Below, piece after piece: positions 457-42,006 of a stretch of 50,157 nt of DNA (the stretch's first letter is position 1; each line of letters begins with the position of its first letter). Under the pieces are notes generated by a model. It made no database searches. It worked only from the letters and a program-made list of their open reading frames with translations, and was not told the origin of the DNA. The position numbers were made by a program, and so were the translations under genes. Origin of the DNA: Bacteroidota bacterium (GTDB lineage: Bacteria > Bacteroidota > Bacteroidia > NS11-12g > UBA955); the NCBI GenBank assembly GCA_030832905.1, contig JAURIG010000003.1, forward strand, positions 1-50,157, written 5' to 3'.

Positions 457-2009
457 TGGCGCTTCATCAATTGTTTGAGTTTTGAAAAGGCTGGCACACT
501 TCTACAACTCCATTTGTCTATGATCACACCTTTGTGCCAAAACATAATGCCCGGATTAGATCTTACCATTGTTTTTAACAAGGTTTCATCGGCATTATTA
601 AACTTAAATGGCAATTGGTGTTCATTCACAAAAGCATCTGCTTCATCGAGTGGAGAAGCGGTAACGGCGTATACAGCCATCCCAGACTTCAATGCCTCTT
701 GACTCATTTGTTGAATCGCCTTCCATGAAGCTTCGTGTGATTTTTCTAAATGCGTTACGACAATTAACACAGCATATCTTTGACTGTTTAGCAAAGAATC
801 TTTGATCTGAACATCGTTGTCTGGTCTTTGAATAAAATCAAAATCATGTATTTTAGATTTCCAGGCAGGAATAATCACTTTATCCACTCTGTTCACATAG
901 GTCCATGAGCTGTCTGGCATATTAGGATAAACAAAAGAATCCACTTGATTCTGTTTGGAATACACAAACACCATAACAGTTGAATCTTTAGCGCGTTCGC
1001 CTTTAGGCACTTCCATCATTTGTTTGATGTTGTTACCGATCTTGTAAGGTAAAAAATCCCAAGCTGGCAAAAACATGTTACAATAAATTGTAAAGATAAG
1101 CGAAGCCAAAGTCGCCACTATCATGGCATTGATACTGAACAAAGGCGAAAACAGAGGCACAATTTGTTTGTGCTTGAATACAATGATCAAAATAAAGAAC
1201 AAGAGTATAATGTCCTTATAAAACGAATGCCAAGGTTTAAGTTTTATAAAATCACCAAAACAACCACAGTCAGTTACCTTATTATAATAAGCACTGTACC
1301 AAGTTAAGAAGGTAAAGAATACAATGACTGCCAACAACAAGTAACTGGTCCATTTCGATTGCCAGCCAATCAACAAAGCAAAACCCAAAACCACTTCAAG
1401 CACACACATGAAAATAGATAAAGACAAAGCATAAGGCTTCATCCCTCTAAAAAAACCAACCCAGAAACTATCTTGATTGACAAATTCATAAACAGCCACG
1501 CGTTCAGAAACTTCATGTTTACTCGTATTAGAAATGGTAAAGGACCAATTTTTATTTAGGCCTTTTGCATCTTTTTGATACTGTTTTGAAGTACTTAAAA
1601 AAATCTGAATGACCGGCAAATAAGATGCAGAATCAATTGTAACACCCTTTTCTAATGGATAAAACATATTGAACAAGACTGTACCATTTTTCAGCACGAA
1701 AATTTCAGAACCATAAGTTGAATCCTCATCACCCTCAAATAATTCCATTCTTGGGGTTGACTGATTGAATTCAATGCTCACAAAACTATCTCTGCTATTG
1801 AACGTGTTTTCAAAACGTTCATCGGAACCAAAATTATCTACAACATGAATGCTCAAAGTGTCTTGTGGCGACTGAAAACTAGACGCAAACACGTCAAAAT
1901 ACTCATTAAATTTTATGCCTGTACCTTTAGGGTCATTGCTTTTAATGATCCCTGAAAAAATAAATAAGCAAGCAACTAAGATTCTTGAAATGTTGGTCAA
2001 TAGTTTCAT
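453..2009 (-). CDS. DoxX/MauE-family membrane protein (BT_3928-like) with C-terminal thioredoxin-like region
   Basis: N-terminal FIFSGIIKSNDPKG, VTDCGCFGDFIKL motif, TM helices, C-terminal KTMVRSNPG. Adjacent to DUF1599/folP as usual in Bacteroidota. Confidence 0.85.
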   Translation of the reverse strand: MKLLTNISRILVACLFIFSGIIKSNDPKGTGIKFNEYFDVFASSFQSPQDTLSIHVVDNFGSDERFENTFNSRDSFVSIEFNQSTPRMELFEGDEDSTYGSEIFVLKNGTVLFNMFYPLEKGVTIDSASYLPVIQIFLSTSKQYQKDAKGLNKNWSFTISNTSKHEVSERVAVYEFVNQDSFWVGFFRGMKPYALSLSIFMCVLEVVLGFALLIGWQSKWTSYLLLAVIVFFTFLTWYSAYYNKVTDCGCFGDFIKLKPWHSFYKDIILLFFILIIVFKHKQIVPLFSPLFSINAMIVATLASLIFTIYCNMFLPAWDFLPYKIGNNIKQMMEVPKGERAKDSTVMVFVYSKQNQVDSFVYPNMPDSSWTYVNRVDKVIIPAWKSKIHDFDFIQRPDNDVQIKDSLLNSQRYAVLIVVTHLEKSHEASWKAIQQMSQEALKSGMAVYAVTASPLDEADAFVNEHQLPFKFNNADETLLKTMVRSNPGIMFWHKGVIIDKWSCRSVPAFSKLKQLMKRQ

Positions 2010-2014
2010 AGTGT

Positions 2015-2557
2015 TTAATCTTGTTTTTGGTGAATGGTAATCAAGGCAAAAATGGCGTAATTCATCATGTCTTGGTAATTGGCGTCTATCCCTTCGCTCA
2101 CAATAGTGGCGCCGGCATTGTCTTCGATTTGTTTGGTTCTATTGATTTTCATCAATATTAAATCGGTAAAGCTGCTAATGCGCATTTCTCTCCATGCCTC
2201 GCCATAATCATGGTTCTTTTTGATCATGAGTTGTCTGGTGGCTTCGAGTTCATGGTCATACAAATCCATAATCTCTTTAACAGATTTGGTTTCTGTTTGA
2301 CCATAATACTTCAATTGCATTAGGCCTATAATGGCATAGTTGTAAATACCAATGAATTCATCTTCAATCCCCTCTCCAACTTTTGTAACGCCTTTTTCTT
2401 CAAGACTGCGAATTCTAAGCGCTTTAATCATGATTTGATCGGTCACACTTTTAGGTCTAAGTATGCGCCAAGAATCACCATAATCTGTGTTTTTTTTCTC
2501 AAACAGATCTCTGCATTGCTTGATTTCTTGATTGTATTGTTGAAGCGTTATTTCCAC
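2015..2557 (-). CDS. DUF1599 domain protein
   Basis: Two internal repeats, KKNTDYGDSWR and KKNHDYGEAWR. Confidence 0.85.
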   Translation of the reverse strand: MEITLQQYNQEIKQCRDLFEKKNTDYGDSWRILRPKSVTDQIMIKALRIRSLEEKGVTKVGEGIEDEFIGIYNYAIIGLMQLKYYGQTETKSVKEIMDLYDHELEATRQLMIKKNHDYGEAWREMRISSFTDLILMKINRTKQIEDNAGATIVSEGIDANYQDMMNYAIFALITIHQKQD

Positions 2558-32357: not shown

Positions 32358-32396
32358 ACTCCGTAAACAAGATCGAAATAAATGTTTATTAGTGAT

Positions 32397-32535
32397 GGGA
32401 TTACTGCGTGATCCCAGAAAAAGGTCCTGCAAAAAAACCAAAGCAAAGCACTTGCTTTGCTAACTTTTTACGCCCTTTATAAAACACTCAATGTCTACGA
32501 CAATGGAAGAAAAAACAGGGATTACTGCGTGATCC
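32397..32535. repeat. Two identical 18-bp hairpin-forming repeats GGGATTACTGCGTGATCC (32397-32414, 32518-32535)
   Basis: Direct repeat 121 bp apart. Each copy is followed about 25-30 nt later by a hairpin and a T-run+AYGCC. Confidence 0.8.
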
Positions 32536-32688
32536 ACAATGGTGGGCGTCTACTAGCTAAGTAAAGGTTTGCTTGGGCGCAAACCGCTTTTTTTATGCCT
32601 TCAAAAACTTAAGTAAGAAGACTAAAAAATGAATAGAGACTATACAATTTAAAAAACAACTTAAATATTACTTGGTTTTTTCTTGCAT

Positions 32689-32720
32689 AAAAAAAGGTTC
32701 TCTGAGAACAGAGAACCTTT
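32689..32720 (-). terminator. Intrinsic terminator of the tRNA-Pro/tRNA-Arg unit
   Basis: Minus strand AAAGGTTCTCTG-TTCT-CAGAGAACCTTTTTTT. Confidence 0.85.
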
Positions 32721-32730
32721 ACTTTGCTAG

Positions 32731-32804
32731 TGATCCCGAAGGGATTCGAACCCCTGACCCACAGATTAGAAATCTGTTGCTCTATCCAGCTGAGCTACGA
32801 GACC
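32731..32804 (-). tRNA. tRNA-Arg(TCT)
   Basis: GGTCTCG/CGGGATC acceptor stem, TAGCTCAGCTGGATAGAGC D arm, ACAGA-TT TCT AA-TCTGT anticodon arm, GGTTCGAATCC T loop. No encoded CCA. Confidence 0.96.
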
Positions 32805-32870
32805 TTGTTTAAAAAAAAAGGCAGTCACAATTGATGCAAATTTGCAAACTGTCTACTGCCAATTGTTTAG

Positions 32871-32944
32871 TCGGGGTGGCAGGATTTGAACCTACGACCT
32901 TCTGCTCCCAAAGCAGACGCGATACCGGGCTACGCTACACCCCG
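32871..32944 (-). tRNA. tRNA-Pro(TGG)
   Basis: CGGGGTG/CACCCCG acceptor stem, TCTGC-TT TGG GA-GCAGA anticodon arm, GGTTCAAATCC T loop. Confidence 0.96.
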
Positions 32945-32975
32945 AAAAAGGTTTTGTTTTTTAAGAACTGGGCTG

Positions 32976-33006
32976 CAAAGGTAAGATTATTTTTTTCTTT
33001 TGCAAA
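32976..33006 (-). promoter_or_regulatory. Sigma-A promoter of tRNA-Pro/tRNA-Arg
   Basis: Minus strand TTTG-N19-TACCTTTG, the Bacteroidota -33/-7 consensus. Confidence 0.75.
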
Positions 33007-33017
33007 CTTTTTTGCAA

Positions 33018-33773
33018 CTAAACCACTGGCTGAGCATTGAAACGTTTGAATAAATACCTGTGCAATAAATAAAATGCATAGAAATGAACAAGGATCGCTA
33101 ATTCTAAACCCACAATATACCATGGCCATTCACCGATTACAAATGGATTGTCAGCATTAGGCTTTTGACATAGAAACATATAATTACCATCGCTTAAATG
33201 GTTAATTAGCCCTATAATTGGAATACACAATTGAGTCAATAAAAACACTTTCCACCAGGCGTGTTTGGGCAATTCAATTTTTAAAACCAGTGTGCCATAA
33301 AAAGCAGCCAATATTACTGCTCCATGTGATAAACCATATGTAATTAACTCATAAGTTCCTTGGCCATGTGTTAATTCAGGCGTTATAAAAGCATGAACAG
33401 CGCCTGCACTCCAAAAAACAAGTAATTCAAACAGCAATTGAGAACGTGTTAACAACATACCAATCGCTATGATTTCAGACATCGAACACAAATGAAAAGG
33501 CAGATTGTTTTGAATGTCCCATGTGCCTTTCTGCAAATAATAAATATGGCTATACACACAATTTACAGCAACAATAACAGCCATAATTTTTGCTATTAGC
33601 ATTCGTTTTTCAGGGTGTTTGAAAGCATAGGTAGCTATGATTAATACTATCGCTGCCGCTAATAAGCCTAAATTTAAGGTGAACCAATCTGCAGATCCTG
33701 GTTCTATTGCAAAGTGTAGATGATTTCTGTCCAAAATATTTTGGCAAAATAGCGATAAGTAGAATAAATCCAA
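33018..33773 (-). CDS. YwaF/TIGR02206 (TMEM164-like) integral membrane protein
   Basis: LPFHLC, A.ITPEL, H..(V)I, GNYMFL..KP, WPWYI motifs and multiple TM helices. Start uncertain. Confidence 0.82.
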   Translation of the reverse strand: MDLFYLSLFCQNILDRNHLHFAIEPGSADWFTLNLGLLAAAIVLIIATYAFKHPEKRMLIAKIMAVIVAVNCVYSHIYYLQKGTWDIQNNLPFHLCSMSEIIAIGMLLTRSQLLFELLVFWSAGAVHAFITPELTHGQGTYELITYGLSHGAVILAAFYGTLVLKIELPKHAWWKVFLLTQLCIPIIGLINHLSDGNYMFLCQKPNADNPFVIGEWPWYIVGLELAILVHFYAFYLLHRYLFKRFNAQPVV

Positions 33774-33817
33774 GTTTTATTCTCCAACATTGTCGTTTAA
33801 AATCTCTGAATTTTAAT

Positions 33818-33847
33818 TTTGTTTTCTTGAATAAACGATTAATTTTG
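33818..33847 (+). promoter_or_regulatory. Sigma-A promoter of tRNA-Ser
   Basis: TTTG-N18-TAATTTTG, 14 nt before the tRNA. Confidence 0.7.
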
Positions 33848-33861
33848 CATCCCCATAATTC

Positions 33862-33948
33862 GGTGAGGTGACTGAGAGGCCGAAAGTAGCAGTTTGCTAA
33901 ACTGCCGTACGGGAAACTGTACCGAGGGTTCGAATCCCTCCCTCACCG
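33862..33948 (+). tRNA. tRNA-Ser(GCT)
   Basis: GGTGAGG/CCTCACC acceptor stem, GCAGT-TT GCT AA-ACTGC anticodon arm, long variable arm GTACGG-GAAA-CTGTAC, GAGGG-TTCGAAT-CCCTC T arm. Confidence 0.97.
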
Positions 33949-34333
33949 CTTTAAAACATAAAAAAAAGCCCGCCAAGGGCTTTTTTTTATGCAACAAATT
34001 TTCCTAGGAGGGATAAGAACCCGAGCAGAGGGTTCGAGCCGAGCTTGCGAGACCACGAAGTAATCCCTCCCTCACCGCAATTAAAATTAAAATAAAACCC
34101 GCTAAGGGTTTTTTTTATGCCCATTTCCTTTGGAGGGATAAGAACCCGAGCAGAGGGTTCGAGCCGAGCTTGCGAGACCACGAAGTAATCCCTCCCTCAC
34201 CGCTTTAAGACATAAAAAACAGCCCGCCAAGGGCTTTTTTTATGCAACAAATTTCCCTAGGAGGGATAAGAACCCGAGTAGAGGGTTCGAGCCGAACGAA
34301 ATGAAACAACATTAGCAATCCCCTTGGTTCACT
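33933..34333 (+). repeat. tRNA-3'-end tandem array with ~125-130 bp period (two complete units, one divergent unit)
   Basis: The 72-bp core GGAGGGATAAGAACCCGAGCAGAGGGTTCGAGCCGAGCTTGCGAGACCACGAAGTAATCCCTCCCTCACCGC is identical at 34007-34078 and 34132-34203. Its first 36 bp recur at 34260-34295 with one mismatch. Each core is preceded by a terminator hairpin. Confidence 0.95.
33957..33991 (+). terminator. tRNA-Ser terminator (symmetric), repeated in each array unit
   Basis: CAT-A run-GCCC-GCCAA-GGGC-T run-ATG. Confidence 0.8.
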
Positions 34334-34496
34334 TTGTGATTTATTATAAATCTTATAAATATAAGCTTTAAATTATTTAAAATTCATTTTTTACAATAAT
34401 GTAAATTAATTATGAATATGAATTAAAATAAAAAATAAATTACTTTTGTTGTTTGTTTATGTAAAATTATTATTTTTGCATAAAATATATTAAAAC

Positions 34497-34953
34497 ATGA
34501 TTAAACAAATTACATTAACTTTATTACTAGTTTTAACGTTTAAAACTTCTCATGCAAGGCCTATTATCAATAAAACAGTTAATGATTGTGGTAAAAACCT
34601 GTTAGGCCAAGTAATGTGTGGTCATGTAAAACAAGAATTAGTTATTTATCAATGTGGAACAGTTGCTGAGCCCAAAAACTGTGAAGGGTGGGTACTAACA
34701 TGTTCTGGCTCAGGAACAACAGCCTATTGATGCAAATTCTCAATCTATAAATGATGCTATTGATGATTATTGGGGTAATTTTCTATTGGACTTAGCCAAT
34801 AATTATATAGACAATAATGTCCTAACTGGAACACATTCGGAAACTGTTGTGATTTCTGATCAAACAGTTAGAATTTATACCGTTGTTTGGAGTATTACTA
34901 TTGATGTGAACGGTAATGCAAACGGTTATGTAAGTGTTTCATGTAATGTCTAA
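34497..34953 (+). pseudogene. Secreted Cys-containing small protein split by a +1 frameshift
   Basis: The signal-peptide ORF stops at 34730. The +1 frame is open 34699-34953 (PIDANSQSINDAIDDYWGNFLLDLANNYIDNNVLTGTHSETVVISDQTVRIYTVVWS...CNV*), and its stop overlaps the next ATG at 34946. Confidence 0.7.
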
Positions 34954-36049
34954 ATCATACAATTTTAAATATTGTGTTCTGTTATTGCTTTTTATTGCTT
35001 TTAAAGCAATTGAAAGTCATGCTACACAGAATTTGAAGTTTAAATACAATAAAGAAGATTTATTATACACATTTAAAAATAAGGCGGCTTCATTGACAAA
35101 ATGTATTGATAATAACTTATACATTTTAGAAAGCCAAGAAACGTTAATAGTTAAGGTTTCAAAATTTAACTTTGAAACAACTAAGTTGTCAGAATGGACA
35201 ATTGATTTGAGTCATTTAGAGTATGAAGGTATTATTGATTTTTTTATTGAAGACTCTAAATTCTATTTTCTATGTGACAATGGTACACGAATTTGTTGTT
35301 TTGATTTTGTTCAAAATAAAGAAGTTTTTAATTTTCAAATAGATAATCCTAGTTCAGTGCTTTTTGAATATACGAATATCCATGTTTATGATAAATGCAT
35401 TTACTTAGTCTTCTCGATTGATATTTCAAGTAAATCAACCGATAAACGAAATTTATTTATAGACAAATACGACTTTAAATCAAATCAAATCATTCCCTTA
35501 ATTAAACGTAAATTGAATGCCAATGTTTTTTCTATTACAAATTATTTGAATTATACGTTTAATAAAAACTTACTTTATTGTAATGATGTCTTAACTGGCG
35601 AATTAAACAACTATAATTTATTAGATTCCTTTCCTTGCCCAACAAAGCTATTTGTCAATGAATTTGATTTGAGTTTATATAAAACAAACAGAATTTCTGT
35701 TTTAGAAAATAGTTTTTCAAAAACGAATTCTAATTTATTATTAGATAGTTTAAGGTATTTTTTTGACAATGAAATAACTTCTACTTGGATAAGTACCAAT
35801 AATGGATTTGTTTGCACTCTTGACAAGCATCCATCGGATTCCTGTGTGGCAAGAATTAGAGCTATGGATATCGCAAACAATCAAAAATATTCTGTTATTT
35901 TGAGCGACAGTAATTCGAACTGTATACAACAAAAAGTTTATTTAAATTATCAGTATTTTGATGGAAAGACTTTCATTCAAGTTTATAATTATTTCGATCC
36001 TAAAACTAGTCAATCAAGTTTAAGGTACAAAGTTTTTGCCTCTGATTAA
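34946..36049 (+). CDS. Secreted hypothetical protein, possibly a beta-propeller
   Basis: Signal peptide ending ..IESHA and repeated short strands (NNLYIL, SKFYFL, KCIYLV, NLLYC). Start moved to ATG 34946. Confidence 0.65.
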   Translation: MSKSYNFKYCVLLLLFIAFKAIESHATQNLKFKYNKEDLLYTFKNKAASLTKCIDNNLYILESQETLIVKVSKFNFETTKLSEWTIDLSHLEYEGIIDFFIEDSKFYFLCDNGTRICCFDFVQNKEVFNFQIDNPSSVLFEYTNIHVYDKCIYLVFSIDISSKSTDKRNLFIDKYDFKSNQIIPLIKRKLNANVFSITNYLNYTFNKNLLYCNDVLTGELNNYNLLDSFPCPTKLFVNEFDLSLYKTNRISVLENSFSKTNSNLLLDSLRYFFDNEITSTWISTNNGFVCTLDKHPSDSCVARIRAMDIANNQKYSVILSDSNSNCIQQKVYLNYQYFDGKTFIQVYNYFDPKTSQSSLRYKVFASD

Positions 36050-36079
36050 ATTTAAATATTGATTAAAGATAAAACAGAA

Positions 36080-36156
36080 CCCGCCAAGGGCTTTTTTTAT
36101 GCAACAAATTTTCCTAGGAGGGATAAGAACCCGAGCAGAGGGTTCGAGCCGAGCTT
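36080..36156 (+). repeat. Truncated distal copy of the tRNA-Ser array unit
   Basis: 77 bp matching 33969-34046 except for one T in the T-run. It ends after GCCGAGCTT. Confidence 0.95.
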
Positions 36157-36289
36157 AACACTTTCTAATTGAAAAATCCATAAAAACCATTCGTATTAGG
36201 GGATTAGTTATACCCCTAAAACTTGTCGATAAATTCAACTGCGAGGGTTTCTTTTAGGGCATTAAAAGCTGTAATATTGTTCATCGATT

Positions 36290-38932
36290 ATGAACATCAA
36301 AGATTGTTTCAAATTCAGAGACATTAAAATTTATGGCAGCACCGAGTGGTTGGCCAACAATGCCAAGCGTTACCGTTCAGTTTTTGACGAACAAGAAGCC
36401 GCATTCATCTATTGCGAATTCTCCTTTTTCAACAAAAAATACGACGAGGAAAATTGGGATATCAGACTGCATTTAAAATGTTTGAATGAACAGGACGAAG
36501 AAATTTGCGATCTAAACTGTGACAGACCAATAGACAAACGCGACAACATCGTATACATACGCGAAGGCTGGGGCGTTAAAACACCCTCTACCTACTGGAA
36601 AGCCGGCACCTACCGTTGGGAGGCCTATCTAAACGAGGAACTCATTGCCACAAAAAGCTTCTACGTAGAACGCCAAGGCTTGGTAAAGAACGGCATCAAC
36701 CCCTACTTCAAAATCGACACCCTCAAATTGTACGAAGGCCCAGACGCCAACCTACAAGAGATCGATAGAAAATATTATATCGGCTTCAATGCCCTCAGTA
36801 CCCGTTACATTTGGATAGAATTCAATGCCAAAAACCTAACGCGTAAAAGCACTGACTGGGCCTGCGAACTCAGCTTCAACTTCAAAACCGCTTCAGGACA
36901 TTTAAAAGGTGCTGCTACAAAACTCTTCTTCATCAAACCTGACGAAGACCAATTCACAACCAGCGTAGGTTGGGGCAGCGACATGCTAGGCACCTGGGCA
37001 AGAGGTCGCTATTACATTGAAATCATTTTCATGGATGAACTCATTGCCAGCGTACCATTCGAAGTAGGCGACGACTATGTTGATGCCATAGAAGAAGACT
37101 TTATGCCACTAGTTCAATCAGGCTTCTACTTTGATGCAGACATGAGCCTTGAGGAAGATGAATTAGACAACATCGCTGCAGAAACCAAAGACTTCAACCC
37201 ACCAGCCAAAGACTCCATAGACAATGTCATGAAAGACCTTGACGATATGATTGGACTTGGCAGCATCAAAGAAAAGGTAAGAGAATACAGCAATTACTTA
37301 AAATTCATAGCCCTCAGAAAAGAGAAAGGGGTATCAGACAACGAACACATCAACCTACACGCCGTATTCAAAGGCAACCCTGGAACAGGTAAAACCACTG
37401 TAGCCAGAATGCTAGGCCGCATATACAAAGAACTAGGCCTCTTAAAGAAAGGCCATGTACATGAAGTAGACAGAGGCGACTTGGTAGCAGAATTCATAGG
37501 TCAAACCGCGCCTAAAACCAAAGAAGCCATTAAAAAAGCAAAAGACGGCATACTCTTTATTGACGAAGCCTACTCGCTTGCAAGAAAAGACGATGACAGC
37601 AAAGACTTTGGCAAAGAAGCCATCGAGATCCTCTTAAAAGAACTCAGTGACGCGCAAGACATTGCCATCATTGTAGCTGGTTACCCAACAGAAATGAACA
37701 CCTTCTTGGAATCTAATCCAGGTTTAAAATCAAGGTTTAACATGACCTATGACTTCCCAGATTATTTACCACAAGAACTCATTAAAATTGCTGAATATGC
37801 TTGCGACAAACGCGGCGTTAAACTCAGCAAAGACGCCAGCGAAGACTTATACAAACACCTCGTTGACGCCTACAGAGACCGCGACAAATTCTTTGGCAAT
37901 GCGCGTATGGTCAATTCCCTAATCGATGAATTCAAAATGAATTTAGGTTTGAGGGTCATGAAAACCAAAGACCCAAAACAACTCACCGTTGAATCACTCA
38001 GCACCATTGAGAAAGACGATATCGAAAAGGCCTACTTGAAACACAAAGGTGACGTTGCAGACATTCCAATTGATGAAGAACTCCTTAAAGAATCAGTTCA
38101 AAAACTTAAAAAGCTTACTGGTTTAGCCCAAGTAAAAGCAGACATAGACGAACTCATCAAACTGGTAAGGTATTACAAAGAAACAGGTAAAAACCCAAGA
38201 GAAATCTTCTCTTTGCACTCTGTATTTACAGGTAACCCAGGTACAGGTAAAACCACTGTTGCCCGCATATTGGCTCAAATCTACAAAGCCCTTGGCATAT
38301 TAGAAAGAGGCCACTTAGTAGAATGCGACCGTCAATCATTGGTGGGAGGATACATTGGGCAAACCGCCATCAAAACAGCTGAGTTAGTTGACAAAGCAAT
38401 GGGTGGTGTATTGTTCATTGACGAAGCCTACGCCCTCACTGAAGGTGGAGGCAACGACTATGGCAAAGAAGCGGTTGAAACCTTACTCAAACGCATGGAA
38501 GATCAACGCGGCAAATTCATTGTTATAGCAGCAGGTTACACCCAAAACATGGAACGCTTCTTAGAAGCCAACCCTGGTTTAAAATCAAGATTCGACAGAA
38601 CCTTCAAGTTTGAAGACTTCAACCCTGAAGAATTATTAGGCATAGCCATACAACAACTCGCTGACCACAACATCACACCAGACGACGCTGCGAAAAACCA
38701 ACTTAAAGCCTACATAGAATACTTGTACAAGAAACGCGACAAGTACTTTGGCAATGGTAGAGCCGTTAGAAAAGTGATTGAGGAAGCTGTAAGAAATCAA
38801 CACTTGCGCCTCAGCGAAATGGCCAAAAGCAAGCGCAGTGCTAAAACCATTGGCACGCTATTGTTTGAAGACGTAAAAGAATTTACCCCAGACAACATCC
38901 CAACTCAAAAAACAGGCATCGGATTTAAATAA
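36290..38932 (+). CDS. Double AAA+ ATPase of the CbbX/SpoVK/EccA family with a tandem N-terminal beta domain
   Basis: Two copies each of H.VF.GNPGTGKTTVAR, LFIDEAY.L, AGY and NPGLKSRF, and FGNAR/FGNGR. Confidence 0.9.
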   Translation: MNIKDCFKFRDIKIYGSTEWLANNAKRYRSVFDEQEAAFIYCEFSFFNKKYDEENWDIRLHLKCLNEQDEEICDLNCDRPIDKRDNIVYIREGWGVKTPSTYWKAGTYRWEAYLNEELIATKSFYVERQGLVKNGINPYFKIDTLKLYEGPDANLQEIDRKYYIGFNALSTRYIWIEFNAKNLTRKSTDWACELSFNFKTASGHLKGAATKLFFIKPDEDQFTTSVGWGSDMLGTWARGRYYIEIIFMDELIASVPFEVGDDYVDAIEEDFMPLVQSGFYFDADMSLEEDELDNIAAETKDFNPPAKDSIDNVMKDLDDMIGLGSIKEKVREYSNYLKFIALRKEKGVSDNEHINLHAVFKGNPGTGKTTVARMLGRIYKELGLLKKGHVHEVDRGDLVAEFIGQTAPKTKEAIKKAKDGILFIDEAYSLARKDDDSKDFGKEAIEILLKELSDAQDIAIIVAGYPTEMNTFLESNPGLKSRFNMTYDFPDYLPQELIKIAEYACDKRGVKLSKDASEDLYKHLVDAYRDRDKFFGNARMVNSLIDEFKMNLGLRVMKTKDPKQLTVESLSTIEKDDIEKAYLKHKGDVADIPIDEELLKESVQKLKKLTGLAQVKADIDELIKLVRYYKETGKNPREIFSLHSVFTGNPGTGKTTVARILAQIYKALGILERGHLVECDRQSLVGGYIGQTAIKTAELVDKAMGGVLFIDEAYALTEGGGNDYGKEAVETLLKRMEDQRGKFIVIAAGYTQNMERFLEANPGLKSRFDRTFKFEDFNPEELLGIAIQQLADHNITPDDAAKNQLKAYIEYLYKKRDKYFGNGRAVRKVIEEAVRNQHLRLSEMAKSKRSAKTIGTLLFEDVKEFTPDNIPTQKTGIGFK

Positions 38933-38933
38933 T

Positions 38934-40070
38934 ATGTTATTCACCTTCCCCTCTATTGTTTCGCTCATTATACTCTCTGTATTGGCATTGCTCATTGGCA
39001 TTCAAGTTTACTTGCATTTCAGATACTATTGGCGCATCATAAAGCATAAAAACCCTAAGATTGATTCCGAACAATGGCCAAGTGTGAGCATTATTATTTG
39101 CGCCCGAAGTGAATATGAAAACCTGCAAGAATTGGTCCCTCAACTCTTGCAAATGGATTATCCCAATTTTGAAATCATACTCATAGATGACGCCTCTTGG
39201 GACGGTTCAACTGATTACATAGAACAACTTCAAAAAACCGAAAGTAAAATCAAAGGTGTCTTTGTAACTGAAGACATTAAGAAAAACCATTTAGGCAAAA
39301 AACTAGCCTTATCATTGGGCATCAAAGCGGCTAAAAACGAAGTCTTGTTACTAACAGATGCTGATTGCAGACCTCAAAGCCAATCATGGATTAAAGCCAT
39401 GGTATACCATTACACTCAAAACCCAAAAATTGAAGTGGTACTGGGGTATTCTCCCTTTTTCAAGCAAAGCAAATTGGTCAACTTAGTTGCCCGTATGGAA
39501 AACATCTACACCGGCTTAAACTACCTCGGATTTGCGCTCAGACAAAACCCCTATATGGGCGTTGGCAGAAACCTCAGTTATAAAAGAGATTTATTCTTTG
39601 CTCACAAAGGCTTTGCCAGTCATTTGCACATTGCCTCAGGAGACGACGACCTCTTCATTAACCAAGTTAGCACTGCTCAAAACACAGCAGTATGCTTGAA
39701 CCCAGAAGGCTTTGTATACAGCTATTCAAAAAACAGTTTCTCTGAGTGGTTCAAACAAAAGAAAAGACATATTGCAGCTGGTAAATACTACAAAAGCCAG
39801 CACAAACGCGCCTTGGCATTCTATGCCTTCACCCATCATTTTTTGTGGATCAGTTTTGCACTCAGCATGTGCTTTGCCGATGCAAGACCTTATGGTTTAA
39901 TAGCGCTGGGCATTTATTGGCTATTCAAATGGCCTATTATGACCACAGCATTTAAGCGCCTTAAACAAGGTGGCTCAGCCTTTTGGATTCCATTCTTTGA
40001 TATCTTGTATTGGCCATATTGTATTTTCATTGCCTTGATTAGCTATTCAAAAAAACAAAGATCATGGTAG
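38934..40070 (+). CDS. GT2 membrane glycosyltransferase (processive PgaC-like)
   Basis: N-terminal TM, DDAS.D, GKKLAL, TDADC, SGDDDL, QKKRH (QxxRW-like), C-terminal TM helices. Confidence 0.88.
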   Translation: MLFTFPSIVSLIILSVLALLIGIQVYLHFRYYWRIIKHKNPKIDSEQWPSVSIIICARSEYENLQELVPQLLQMDYPNFEIILIDDASWDGSTDYIEQLQKTESKIKGVFVTEDIKKNHLGKKLALSLGIKAAKNEVLLLTDADCRPQSQSWIKAMVYHYTQNPKIEVVLGYSPFFKQSKLVNLVARMENIYTGLNYLGFALRQNPYMGVGRNLSYKRDLFFAHKGFASHLHIASGDDDLFINQVSTAQNTAVCLNPEGFVYSYSKNSFSEWFKQKKRHIAAGKYYKSQHKRALAFYAFTHHFLWISFALSMCFADARPYGLIALGIYWLFKWPIMTTAFKRLKQGGSAFWIPFFDILYWPYCIFIALISYSKKQRSW

Positions 40071-40690
40071 ATTCTAGCATCATACAAACGTATTTTCCTA
40101 ATCTCACTGCCCATCAAATTCAACAGTTTGACCAACTCTATCCCTTGTATGCTGAATGGAATGAAAAAATCAATGTGATCTCCAGAAAAGACATTGATGA
40201 ACTCTATACCAGACATGTTTTGCACGCTTTAGCATTGGCCAAGTGCATTGACTTCAAGCCCATCAAAACCGTTTTAGACATTGGTACAGGGGGCGGATTT
40301 CCGGGTATACCCCTCGCCATATTGTTCCCAGAAATACAATTTCATTTGGTGGATTCTATTGGCAAAAAAATCCAAGTGGTTCAAGCCGTTGCAGAAGCAT
40401 TAGGTTTAAAGAATGTTAAGGCAGAACAAGCCCGAGCAGAGAGCATTACTGGTAAATATGATTTAGTGACTTGCAGAGCGGTTACCCAACTGGTAGACTT
40501 CTATACTTGGATTGTTAAAAACCTAAAACCAGACGCTGAAGTTGCCTGTTTAAAAGGCGGCGACTTAGTGCAAGAAATCATTGATTTCAAAGCCAAATTC
40601 ATCAGAAGAAAGGTCAAGACATTTGAGTTGCATAGCATCTTCCCGCTCCCCTTCTTCGAAACTAAAAAAGTATTGAGAATTACCCATTAA
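40064..40690 (+). CDS. rsmG: 16S rRNA m7G527 methyltransferase
   Basis: WNEKINVISR, RHVLH, DIGTGGGFPGIPLAI, RAE, RAV, LKGGDL. Confidence 0.95.
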   Translation: MVDSSIIQTYFPNLTAHQIQQFDQLYPLYAEWNEKINVISRKDIDELYTRHVLHALALAKCIDFKPIKTVLDIGTGGGFPGIPLAILFPEIQFHLVDSIGKKIQVVQAVAEALGLKNVKAEQARAESITGKYDLVTCRAVTQLVDFYTWIVKNLKPDAEVACLKGGDLVQEIIDFKAKFIRRKVKTFELHSIFPLPFFETKKVLRITH

Positions 40691-42006
40691 TGGGTTTGTT
40701 CCGTTTTGGCAGTAGCCGCTGGAATATGCACTGTATCAGGTGTCCATTTGGCGACGCCTATCATGATCATAAAGCCAATCACGTAGGCTAAGATCACATG
40801 CCAACCATTTTTTACCCAAGCCCCTACCGACTTAGCTTCAGGAAAGATATTTGACAACGCCACACCGGCAGATGACCCAAACCAAATCATACTACCTCCG
40901 AAACCAACAGCAAAGGCTAATACGCCCCAGTCATAGCCCCCTTGCGTTAAGGCCAATTTGGTTAAAGGAATATTATCAAACACTGCAGACACAAAGCCTA
41001 AAGACATTGCTATTGGCCATGAAGCAGCTGGCAATGAGTCCACTGGCATCATACTTGCCGCAATCACCAAACTCAATAAAAACACTGACCCACTAATGGC
41101 ATGTTTTGATTCTGCCCATGGCGTTTTGGTAAAACTGGCCGCTAATAATATGGCTACCCAAACCCCTAAGGCCGGAAAATCAAACAAGAAATTGGTGACA
41201 ATTGTGCCCACTAAAATCAGCAAAACCGCTAACAAACGTTTGTAATCCACTTTTGCATTAGCAGGCGCATCTTTAGTAATGGCTTGGTAGGCGTGTTGTT
41301 GTTTAGCTGCAATGATACCAAAAACAATAATTGCAGGAACAGCCGCTATGAAAGACTTCAATACTTCAGTGGCTGGCACACCGGCAATCCATATCATGGT
41401 AGTAGTAGTATCTCCCACCACAGAGCCAGAGCCACCTGCGTTACTCGCTGCTACTATGGCCGCTAAATACCCAATATGCACTTTGCCTCTGAACACAGTG
41501 GCAGCAACTGTACCACCAATCATGGCAGCAGCAATATTATCTAAGAAAGAAGAAATGATTGCGATTAAAACCAATAACACAAAACCACCAACCCAATTGT
41601 CTGGCAAATATTTAGGCAAAATTTGAGGGATACCACTCTCTTCAAAATGTTTAGCTAAGATGGCAAAGCCCAATAGCAATCCAATCAAATTAAGGATAAC
41701 AGCCCATTCACCTTGACGCATGTCTTTGTGAATGATTTGGTCCATGATGGCATTCGTACCGAAAAAATGTTCACCTATTAAAAATCCTTTTGCAACAAAC
41801 AATTCCCAAATCAAAATGACCCCCAAACCAGCGAGTGCAACCTGCATGGTATGGTTATGGAAAATAGCTACCGCGACTAAAGTCAAGGCAAACAAAATAA
41901 ACTCCATGCGAACAGGACCAATAGAAGGGCCATCTGTATGACCATGTGCCATTGCCATGAACGGCAACACAAAAACCAAAGCCAATAATGCTATTTTCTT
42001 CAACAT
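40687..42006 (-). CDS. NhaD/CitMHS-like ion transporter (IT superfamily)
   Basis: SSFLDNI, ASNAGGSGSVVGDTTTTM, SAVFDNIPL, GFGGSMIWFGSSAGVA, about 12 TM helices. Confidence 0.82.
   Translation of the reverse strand: MLKKIALLALVFVLPFMAMAHGHTDGPSIGPVRMEFILFALTLVAVAIFHNHTMQVALAGLGVILIWELFVAKGFLIGEHFFGTNAIMDQIIHKDMRQGEWAVILNLIGLLLGFAILAKHFEESGIPQILPKYLPDNWVGGFVLLVLIAIISSFLDNIAAAMIGGTVAATVFRGKVHIGYLAAIVAASNAGGSGSVVGDTTTTMIWIAGVPATEVLKSFIAAVPAIIVFGIIAAKQQHAYQAITKDAPANAKVDYKRLLAVLLILVGTIVTNFLFDFPALGVWVAILLAASFTKTPWAESKHAISGSVFLLSLVIAASMMPVDSLPAASWPIAMSLGFVSAVFDNIPLTKLALTQGGYDWGVLAFAVGFGGSMIWFGSSAGVALSNIFPEAKSVGAWVKNGWHVILAYVIGFMIMIGVAKWTPDTVHIPAATAKTEQTH

Follow-up and report, generated by a model that had tools for sequence, protein, structure and literature searches.

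In the 50,157-nucleotide stretch analyzed here (the window; positions 1 to 50,157 of contig JAURIG010000003.1 of a Bacteroidota bacterium), a tRNA-Ser(GCT) gene is followed by a tandem array of repeat units of about 125 nucleotides, and between the third unit and a fourth, truncated one lies a foreign-looking two-gene operon, referred to below as the cargo. This cassette is a strain-variable islet in an array of units resembling the RtT repeats of the Escherichia coli tyrT operon, placed at a tRNA-Ser hot spot that extends through the genus, and does not amount to a new cassette system. The entities involved are of known kinds, that is, tRNA-linked repeats and tRNA-associated islets or remnants of the type of cis-mobilizable elements (CIMEs). 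Regarding the way in which the operon was gained or lost, we lean towards recombination between the units, of the RecA type and homologous, with no dedicated cassette machinery.

Cargo-bearing and cargo-free alleles

The source genome is a metagenome-assembled genome (MAG) of 242 contigs, 85.5% complete and with 6.3% contamination. Every assembly compared in this work was made from short reads running through the 125-nt tandem repeats, and the number and order of the units as well as their contacts with the cargo are possibly mis-assembled. The tRNA genes were located with ARAGORN, and the units were scored with the Rfam model of RtT (RF00391) and with R1, a covariance model that we built from nine Bacteroidia units. 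The array and the cargo are composed of the following features:

33862-33949, plus strand: tRNA-Ser(GCT), which anchors the array (ARAGORN; Rfam tRNA, 55.6 bits)
33950-34080, plus strand: unit 1 (R1, 115.2 bits; RF00391, 26.2 bits)
34081-34204, plus strand: unit 2, complete, with the other type of spacer (R1, 114.1 bits; RF00391, 21.9 bits)
34205-34334, plus strand: unit 3, a full-length mosaic (R1, 57.3 bits; RF00391, 19.6 bits)
34335-34496, plus strand: cargo leader, very AT-rich (GC about 0.19), presumed promoter region (from its composition)
34497-34953, plus strand: gene 1, frameshifted, for a Cys-rich, putatively secreted protein of about 155-164 amino acids (homology to genome G043)
34946-36049, plus strand: gene 2, for a putatively secreted, predicted beta-propeller of 367 amino acids (open reading frame (ORF); AlphaFold2; Foldseek)
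36062-36156, plus strand: unit 4, truncated, with spacer, terminator and 5' part of the core, ending ...GAGCCGAGCTT

In the closest genome (G015), the window segments 32725-34295 and 36065-42000 are conserved at 95.3% and 97.9% identity, respectively, and one partial unit is covered by both alignments. The order in this genome is tRNA, two full units, a partial unit ending GAGCCGAGCTT and the common flank, with no cargo in between, and gene 2 was not found in the genome (97% complete). An exact-pattern scan of a metagenome collection returned three further contigs of the lineage: besides the partial unit, L040 contains three full units and L038 a single one, and L039 begins within the array; in each of them the array passes into the common flank without cargo. 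Since all four related contigs are empty (4/4), each of them with the partial end of the unit 4 type followed by the flank, the cargo together with one unit copy represents a true presence/absence polymorphism. Filled and empty alleles differ by precisely this segment, 1,857 bp from unit start to unit start. A search of relatives for empty sites had been proposed by a sequence-only reading of this DNA, whose description of the feature is largely correct and which took the repeats for entry or exit points of cargo; the repeats do bracket a real insertion or deletion, for which recombination between units, be it homologous or catalysed in trans, appears to be the best mechanism. The relatives carry one to three full units plus one truncated unit, and the window carries two full, one mosaic and one truncated unit. 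Because the copy number and order of the units vary among strains, recombination from unit to unit is evidently active.

Parts of the stretch are present in 20 public sequencing runs from 12 studies, all of them runs of DNA. Four runs from four studies (X1, X2, X4 and X5) were examined at the level of contigs only, and the cargo was found in contigs of all four, with 97-100% identity. Contigs of three of these runs bridge gene 2 to unit 4: X1 (35206-36109), X2 (35596-36137) and X4 (35391-36109). The depth of the cargo contigs was below that of the flank in X4 (5-9 vs 17-27) and X5 (10-14 vs 28-33), which fits a mixed population, contig depths being a crude measure. The bin 34292-34415 was uncovered in X2, X4 and X5, to which we give no evidential weight. 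Several contigs leave the cargo internally and continue into other sequence, and therefore DNA like gene 2 occurs in other contexts too.

That a real cargo lies beside a unit, but was joined to the wrong units, from another array variant or a co-assembled strain, seems rather improbable. Such a placement artefact would be favored by the fragmentation and contamination of the MAG and by the more than 60 nt of identical sequence that the units share; odd joins do exist at this locus, as in L038, none of the listed contigs extends over cargo, unit 4 and flank together, and the left junction was covered in X1 only. However, the cargo is bridged to unit 4, with its distinctive spacer, in contigs from three independent runs, window-type units are confined to one locus in this lineage, and across runs the cargo and the flanks have similar densities of single-nucleotide polymorphisms.

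The repeat units and their likeness to RtT

The full units 1 and 2 consist of a short AT spacer, a palindromic terminator-like hairpin with runs of A and T, and a core that reads GGAGGGAT AAGAACCCGAGCAGAGGGTTCGA GCCGAGCTTGCGAGACCACGAAGTA ATCCCTCCCTCACCGC. In unit 1 the hairpin is a bidirectional terminator and the RtT-like hairpin follows it; the terminator-like hairpin of unit 2 is located at 34094-34112. The last 17 nt of the core are those of the tRNA 3' end; further inside, a stretch is 76% identical to the segment comprising the variable arm and T arm of the tRNA, and the core folds into an outer 8-bp stem around a 6-bp hairpin. The array contains a family of 84-nt direct repeats in four copies (33959-34042, 34084-34167, 34212-34295 and 36069-36152). 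BLAST aligns both 34204-34295 and 36065-36156 with unit 1 at 95% identity (E 8.9e-35), in agreement with the earlier remark that the distal copy is close to unit 1, and the repeat copies of units 3 and 4 share 79/84 positions. No further similar sequence was found by BLAST beyond the array in the 1.95-Mb assembly, where R1 gave four matches, all at the array, plus one of 16.5 bits at E 0.55.

A reading of unit 3 as truncated needs correction. Positions 34205-34295 are of the local type, and the remaining 39 nt (34296-34334) are a diverged 3' third that retains AATCCC; because R1 aligns 34245-34334 from end to end (model positions 1-89, 57.3 bits), the unit is a mosaic and is not cut off. Unit 4 is a mosaic as well, its spacer coming from one unit type (ATTAAAGATAAAACA) and its body from another. 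As previously noticed from the letters, it comprises the terminator and, of the core, the 5' part, without the tRNA 3' end: GAGCCGAGCTT is followed directly by the DNA upstream of an AAA-ATPase gene.

The RtT family was the sole suggestive Rfam match of the units. The matches of units 1 to 3 extend over the whole RF00391 model in cmscan, and a related unit of genome G002 obtained 23.5 bits; the scores of units 1 to 3 did not reach the gathering score of 45. No RF00391 match was listed at E<=0.5 in eight further loci. Matches of units to Thr_leader, MicC and other Rfam families were discarded as sub-threshold look-alikes of terminators. In the reverse test, R1 was run on the tyrT-tyrV-rttR locus of E. 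coli K-12 and recognized 4/4 units, with 26.3 (E 2.5e-5 in 59 kb), 19.1, 17.7 and 15.4 bits; tRNA genes alone gave 12-13 bits. R1 also located units 30-46 nt behind tRNA-Ser(GGA) in 7/27 genomes of another genus of the family (g21), and one behind tRNA-Ser(TGA) in G002 (L088). The Ser(GGA)-linked unit loci of g21 are L084, L086, L089 and L090. In 9/9 pairs of tRNA and unit (seven from Bacteroidia, two from E. coli) the unit ends in the 3' end of its own tRNA, the match over the last 16-17 nt being exact in eight pairs and having a single mismatch in one, even as these ends vary between loci. The host tRNAs all belong to class II (Ser, Tyr). Genome G046 has one window-type unit with a 13-bp outer stem and an extra 41-nt hairpin, inserted exactly at the position where the truncated units end.

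The likeness to the rtT repeats of the E. coli tyrT-tyrV operon thus includes tandem units directly behind a class-II tRNA gene, the copy of the own tRNA 3' end that closes each unit, and an outer stem in which the 5' strand pairs with the 3' strand of the T-stem. The two also share blocks that do not derive from the tRNA, namely GAGAACC, GGTTCGAnnCGAGC, GCGAGA and GTAATCC. On the other hand, the host tRNA is Ser in the window and Tyr in E. coli, the phylum here is Bacteroidota, and the window units measure 125 nt against 178 nt, lack the long central hairpin and have a terminator of their own. According to the annotation, the tiny tpr ORF is the only known gene content of the E. coli tyrT array, whereas the window array holds the cargo. 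One report describes rttR as encoded by one tyrT repeat unit (PMC3318445), and a 2024 preprint calls the mode of action of rttR unknown. By its architecture and in part its sequence, the array is classified as an RtT-like tRNA-linked repeat that stands below the threshold for Rfam membership.

The truncated distal unit and an ancestral rearrangement

The array is surrounded by the following genes:

32730-32804, minus strand: tRNA-Arg (ARAGORN)
32870-32944, minus strand: tRNA-Pro (ARAGORN)
32730-33773, minus strand: tRNA-Arg, tRNA-Pro and a TMEM164-family gene, members of the presumed ancestral Ser-Pro-Arg cluster
36290-38932, plus strand: double AAA+ ATPase gene (Pfam AAA, AAA_lid_6)

In 19/19 loci of other relatives (L006-L024, L032) the AAA-ATPase gene is located upstream of tRNA-Ser and divergent from it. 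An upstream TMEM164 gene with the AAA gene downstream on the same strand was found exclusively in the lineage of the window. From these arrangements we infer an ancestral order in which the AAA gene pointed away from tRNA-Ser and its array, followed by tRNA-Pro and tRNA-Arg in the direction of tRNA-Ser. The arrangement in the window is most simply explained by an inversion of tRNA-Ser together with the array in this lineage, with one breakpoint inside a unit. Such a breakpoint would be the reason why the array of every close relative, filled or empty, ends in one common truncated unit. The truncated distal unit is no analogue of attR and no special att site; it is an ancestral array end common to all close relatives, and marks the place where tRNA and array were rearranged relative to the AAA-ATPase gene.

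The 880-residue AAA protein has two AAA+ modules, AAA-lid domains and a long N-terminal region without Pfam match, and the position of its gene adjoining tRNA-Ser is conserved across two families. A 21-nt inverted repeat (33796-33816 / 36308-36328, 86%) was considered as a relic of the rearrangement and rejected, being no better than the chance pairs listed.

The AT-rich cargo and its two genes

The cargo DNA between units 3 and 4 (34296-36064, 1,769 bp) has a GC content of 0.263, the lowest among all segments of this size in the 50 kb (median 0.401, 5th percentile 0.357). The GC content at third codon positions (GC3) is 0.19-0.22 in its genes, compared to 0.47 and 0.30 in the flanking genes. 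The repeats of the array and this lowest GC content demonstrate that the AT-rich segment is real, far beyond chance, and the sliding-window and codon statistics, suggested as a check by the sequence-only reading, bear out its view of the composition.

The first of the two genes is broken. Its N-terminal half corresponds to the ORF 34497-34730 and its C-terminal half to the ORF 34729-34953, in different frames with the shift near 34725-34730; since the halves match one intact protein of 164 amino acids in G043 (54% and 50% identity, respectively), the two ORFs are a single gene. Contigs of X2 and X5 have a 5-nt insertion (GTAAA) after 34725 that restores a single frame, and the broken form was observed in the window and in X1, so this 5-nt indel polymorphism decides whether gene 1 is intact. 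Its product is Cys-rich and has a hydrophobic N-terminus. A word-based search of a collection of 5.8 billion proteins showed two clusters for the gene 1 family, and the ESM Atlas contained no usable match to it.

Gene 2 starts 8 nt before the end of gene 1, the same overlap as in G043. None of the three cargo ORFs matched Pfam or PHROGs (zero matches). Among 1.84 billion representative proteins, gene 2 had four full-length homologs, and the word-based protein search with it found its own cluster only. The AlphaFold2 model of gene 2, obtained from five sequences, shows an N-terminal helix followed by an all-beta fold (predicted local distance difference test (pLDDT) 81, predicted template-modelling score (pTM) 0.80). 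Its best Foldseek matches in the PDB were beta-propellers (YncE, a Bacteroides exported protein, BamB, BtuG and XusB) at template-modelling (TM) scores of 0.4-0.5 (0.41-0.50), and on the basis of this model gene 2 is predicted to encode a beta-propeller. Judging by eye from the N-terminal sequences and from the N-terminal helix of the model, both proteins are probably secreted. The earlier description of the cargo as two genes for secreted proteins thus stands as regards the operon, with secretion read by eye, and needs correction for gene 1, which is frameshifted into two ORF halves.

Gene 2 was present in 5/191 genomes of the order, all from one genus (G000, G004, G045, G043 and, as a fragment, G001). 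G043 carries the intact operon of genes 1 and 2 with a radical-SAM-like gene on one side and an M48 peptidase gene on the other, in a patch of 24-27% GC, and aligns with the window over 34464-36028 alone (58%). At this locus there was no tRNA, no similarity to the units and no att-like flanks. Because G043 has an intact copy elsewhere with neither unit nor tRNA, the operon is independent of the repeats. In G004 and G045, gene 2 alone is found beside XRE-type regulator genes within a 3.5-kb patch of 20-28% GC, and neither tRNA nor unit is present there. The expectation that homologs of the cargo elsewhere would be flanked by the same motif was consequently disappointed at all three loci (0/3).

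The radical-SAM/M48 intergenic slot is variable (L064 in G043, L068 in G046, L067 in G006). In G046 it holds an unrelated secreted protein of 376 amino acids, which was considered as a distant homolog of gene 2 and rejected at an hhalign probability of 0.4%. The islet of G004 (contig C106; L041 17274-20000 / L026) and G045 (L063) sits between sdhB and a core gene and comprises two XRE-type regulator genes that are nearly identical to each other; behind each of them come genes encoding secreted proteins or lipoproteins, the gene-2 homolog included.

The tRNA-Ser hot spot in the genus

The spacer between tRNA-Ser and tRNA-Pro ranges across the genus from 13 nt to 10.4 kb, and the tRNA-Ser flank of other species is occupied by different variable DNA. 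Behind tRNA-Ser, congeneric species have units of a second type, about 150-160 nt long and formed by a long-range inverted repeat around a terminator, with further hairpins, then ...GGGATCAYGCARTAATCCC and often the tRNA-Ser 3' end. The sequence of this inverted repeat varies by species and its pairing is kept. The GGGATCA part of the GGGATCAYGCARTAATCCC region is the tRNA-Arg 3' end. Loci with units of this type are L019, L020, L021, L022, L009/L046, L010/L043, L016, L018 and L032, and on the minus strand of the window (32385-32730) tRNA-Arg is followed by two of them, each ending GGATCACGCAGTAATCCC.

Three loci point to integrase activity at these sites. G022 (contig C19, L043 1070-4100) has a 3.0-kb AT-rich island of 20-28% GC that starts directly after a unit ending GTAATCCC; its right end reads ...CCATAATCCC/CCCTCTCACTCC, that is, TAATCCC and then a diverged tRNA 3' end, and it encodes a C-terminal fragment of a tyrosine integrase (PF00589, 31.6 bits). 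The island, which sits in the tRNA-like end of a unit, also contains small ORFs and a DUF4238-like gene identified by eye. In G013 (contig C11, L059/L060) an intact gene for a 428-residue integrase starts some 170 nt downstream of tRNA-Ser, and behind it lie about 11.5 kb of DNA with lower GC. As attR of this island, neither a tRNA 3'-end copy with <=3 mismatches nor a shared 10-mer was found. G011 has at least three units of 121 nt, each ending TAATCCC. In view of these loci, the tRNA-like cores of the units look like sites of tRNA-Ser-specific integrases. A low-GC island of G008, initially assigned to the tRNA-Ser array, was rejected, as the tRNA scan places it after tRNA-Arg.

Contig L038 (1-2460) shows the Ser array in reverse, TMEM164, tRNA-Pro, tRNA-Arg, two Arg-linked units and a diverged, truncated RtT-like unit. 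After this last unit, which ends GAGCTGAG, come an AT-rich gene for a lipoprotein of 161 amino acids (1868-2353, minus strand) and the AAA gene. This may be an alternative arrangement or a chimera. The cargos of the window and L038 share no sequence beyond the unit break.

These islands give some substance to a second reading of the cargo, which we regard as unlikely: a decayed, CIME-like remnant of an island. A tRNA-Ser-specific tyrosine integrase would have inserted the island into the copy of the tRNA 3' end in unit 3, used as pseudo-attB; later both the integrase and the right att site would have disappeared, and the remnant might still be mobile in trans through a related integrase. The left cargo junction, ...GCAATCCC/CTTGG..., the G022 island bounded by GTAATCCC and by CCATAATCCC/CCCTCTCACTCC, with its integrase fragment, and the intact integrase gene and low-GC DNA at tRNA-Ser in G013 are all in favor of this reading, and both CIMEs and tandem accretion are described in two reports (PMC5704250, PMC3146451). 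However, the right edge of the cargo has neither a tRNA 3' end nor a copy of AATCCC, the direct repeats that bracket it are terminator plus 5' core and do not represent an att core, no integrase fragment exists in the window, the operon of G043 has no att-like flanks, and even for the G013 island attR was not found. This reading is compatible with recombination between units and could explain the first arrival of the operon in an array.

Recombination between units as the favored mechanism

We favor homologous recombination between units because the alleles differ by one repeat-bracketed segment, the units are mosaic and become reshuffled, and there is no recombinase nearby. Both units that bracket the cargo are mosaics, as expected from crossovers inside units. 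No integrase was found in the window, as the sequence-only reading had stated. In the whole assembly, PF00589 had one match, on another contig (C55), to a protein of Xer size (312 amino acids), and the resolvase family PF00239 had no match (assembly 85.5% complete). An integrase acting in trans is less likely than homologous recombination. The units would serve as portable homology: entry of the cargo could take the form of a double crossover between the array and DNA of a related one, or of a Campbell-type insertion of a circle carrying one unit, and loss that of a deletion between the direct repeats (84-92 nt).

Several observations weigh against this mechanism. The cargo begins a few bases past AATCCC, and a break directly after TAATCCC is likewise found in the G022 island and the G011 units; this pattern is the signature of an integrase acting on the tRNA T-loop, which homologous recombination would not leave. 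On its right side the cargo comes to within 1-2 nt of where a unit starts. How the operon first arrived between units is not explained by homologous recombination alone, and the repeats involved are short (84-92 nt) and 94-95% identical. The left cargo junction was covered in X1 only, which is possibly the source sample, and units may have been misplaced or collapsed by short-read assembly through tandem repeats. In the contigs of the four runs there was none joining 34295 to 36153 and no circle junction, a result that is uninformative either way.

Comparison with known mobile systems

As in islands borne by tRNA genes and in CIMEs, the cargo lies beyond the 3' end of a tRNA gene, and relatives with an intact site do not have it. 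It resembles CIMEs and products of tandem accretion (of the ICESt1 type, or the ssrA islands of Dehalococcoides) in being a small integrase-less segment among copies of a tRNA 3' end, and also in the integrase-bearing or decayed islands that neighboring species have at the same tRNA. Integrase-less elements between att repeats are described in the two reports cited above (PMC5704250, PMC3146451). The window differs from them in that its repeats are whole RtT-like units, not attL/attR, and are present without an island too. A pair of attL and attR was not observed: the left side has only a diverged AATCCC...TCAC, and the right side is without the tRNA 3' end.

Among integrons, CALINs (clusters of attC sites lacking integron-integrases) are cassette arrays with no adjacent integrase. 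The window resembles such arrays in having, at one place, an alternation of ~125-nt repeats with a promoter-proximal ORF module. However, there is no intI and no series of different cassettes, and the units are a terminator plus a tRNA-like hairpin. No IntI-type recombinase adjoins the array, the PF00589 match being on C55 only, and apart from the single cargo the units stand in tandem without ORFs between them (no attC model was run). The pdif modules and other Xer-dependent elements are likewise integrase-less, need the host recombinase and are found on plasmids or at the terminus. Here, in contrast, the direct repeats are long and the site is a tRNA gene; no 28-bp XerC/XerD sites were recognized by eye flanking the cargo (no dif model was run).

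The idea of the sequence-only reading that the array is an integron-like or dif-module-like platform, whose units would be specific recombination sites for a recombinase encoded elsewhere or for the host Xer, is in our opinion very improbable. It has on its side the position of the cargo between units with no local integrase, the sole tyrosine recombinase found in the genome being of Xer size (312 amino acids), and L038, where a different AT-rich gene, for the 161-residue lipoprotein, directly follows another truncated RtT-like unit, which breaks at the same position (GAGCTGAG). Nevertheless, the window array contains one cargo and the related contigs are empty, the cargos of the window and L038 have nothing in common beyond the break, and L038, with its odd gene order, is possibly chimeric. 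Moreover, the cargo homologs of G043, G004 and G045 occur without units, the units behind tRNA-Ser(GGA) at four loci of another genus are single-copy (genes between tRNA and unit left out of account), and the repeats are direct and include a terminator, unlike attC or the 28-bp dif site as judged by eye. A dedicated cassette system is not supported, and homologous recombination between units stays the favored explanation.

Implications for tRNA-linked repeats

Taken alone, the cassette is an ordinary strain-variable islet, and the link between Bacteroidia and E. coli through RtT is the part worth following. Behind tRNA-Ser genes of Bacteroidia there are repeats akin in architecture to those of the E. 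coli tyrT operon, and their ends track the local tRNA. Here the arrays coincide with a genus-wide insertion hot spot, and the array of the window encloses a module of genes segregating in natural populations. It is conceivable, if rather speculative, that RtT-like units, mimicking the 3' end of the adjacent class-II tRNA, dock small integrase-less modules, which would enter and be lost behind tRNA genes, by acting as pseudo-attB cores for tRNA-specific integrases or as portable homology arms. If the units are recombination substrates, the RtT repeat class would have a testable function, and if the docking role were true, this long-unexplained class would gain a part in genome plasticity across phyla.

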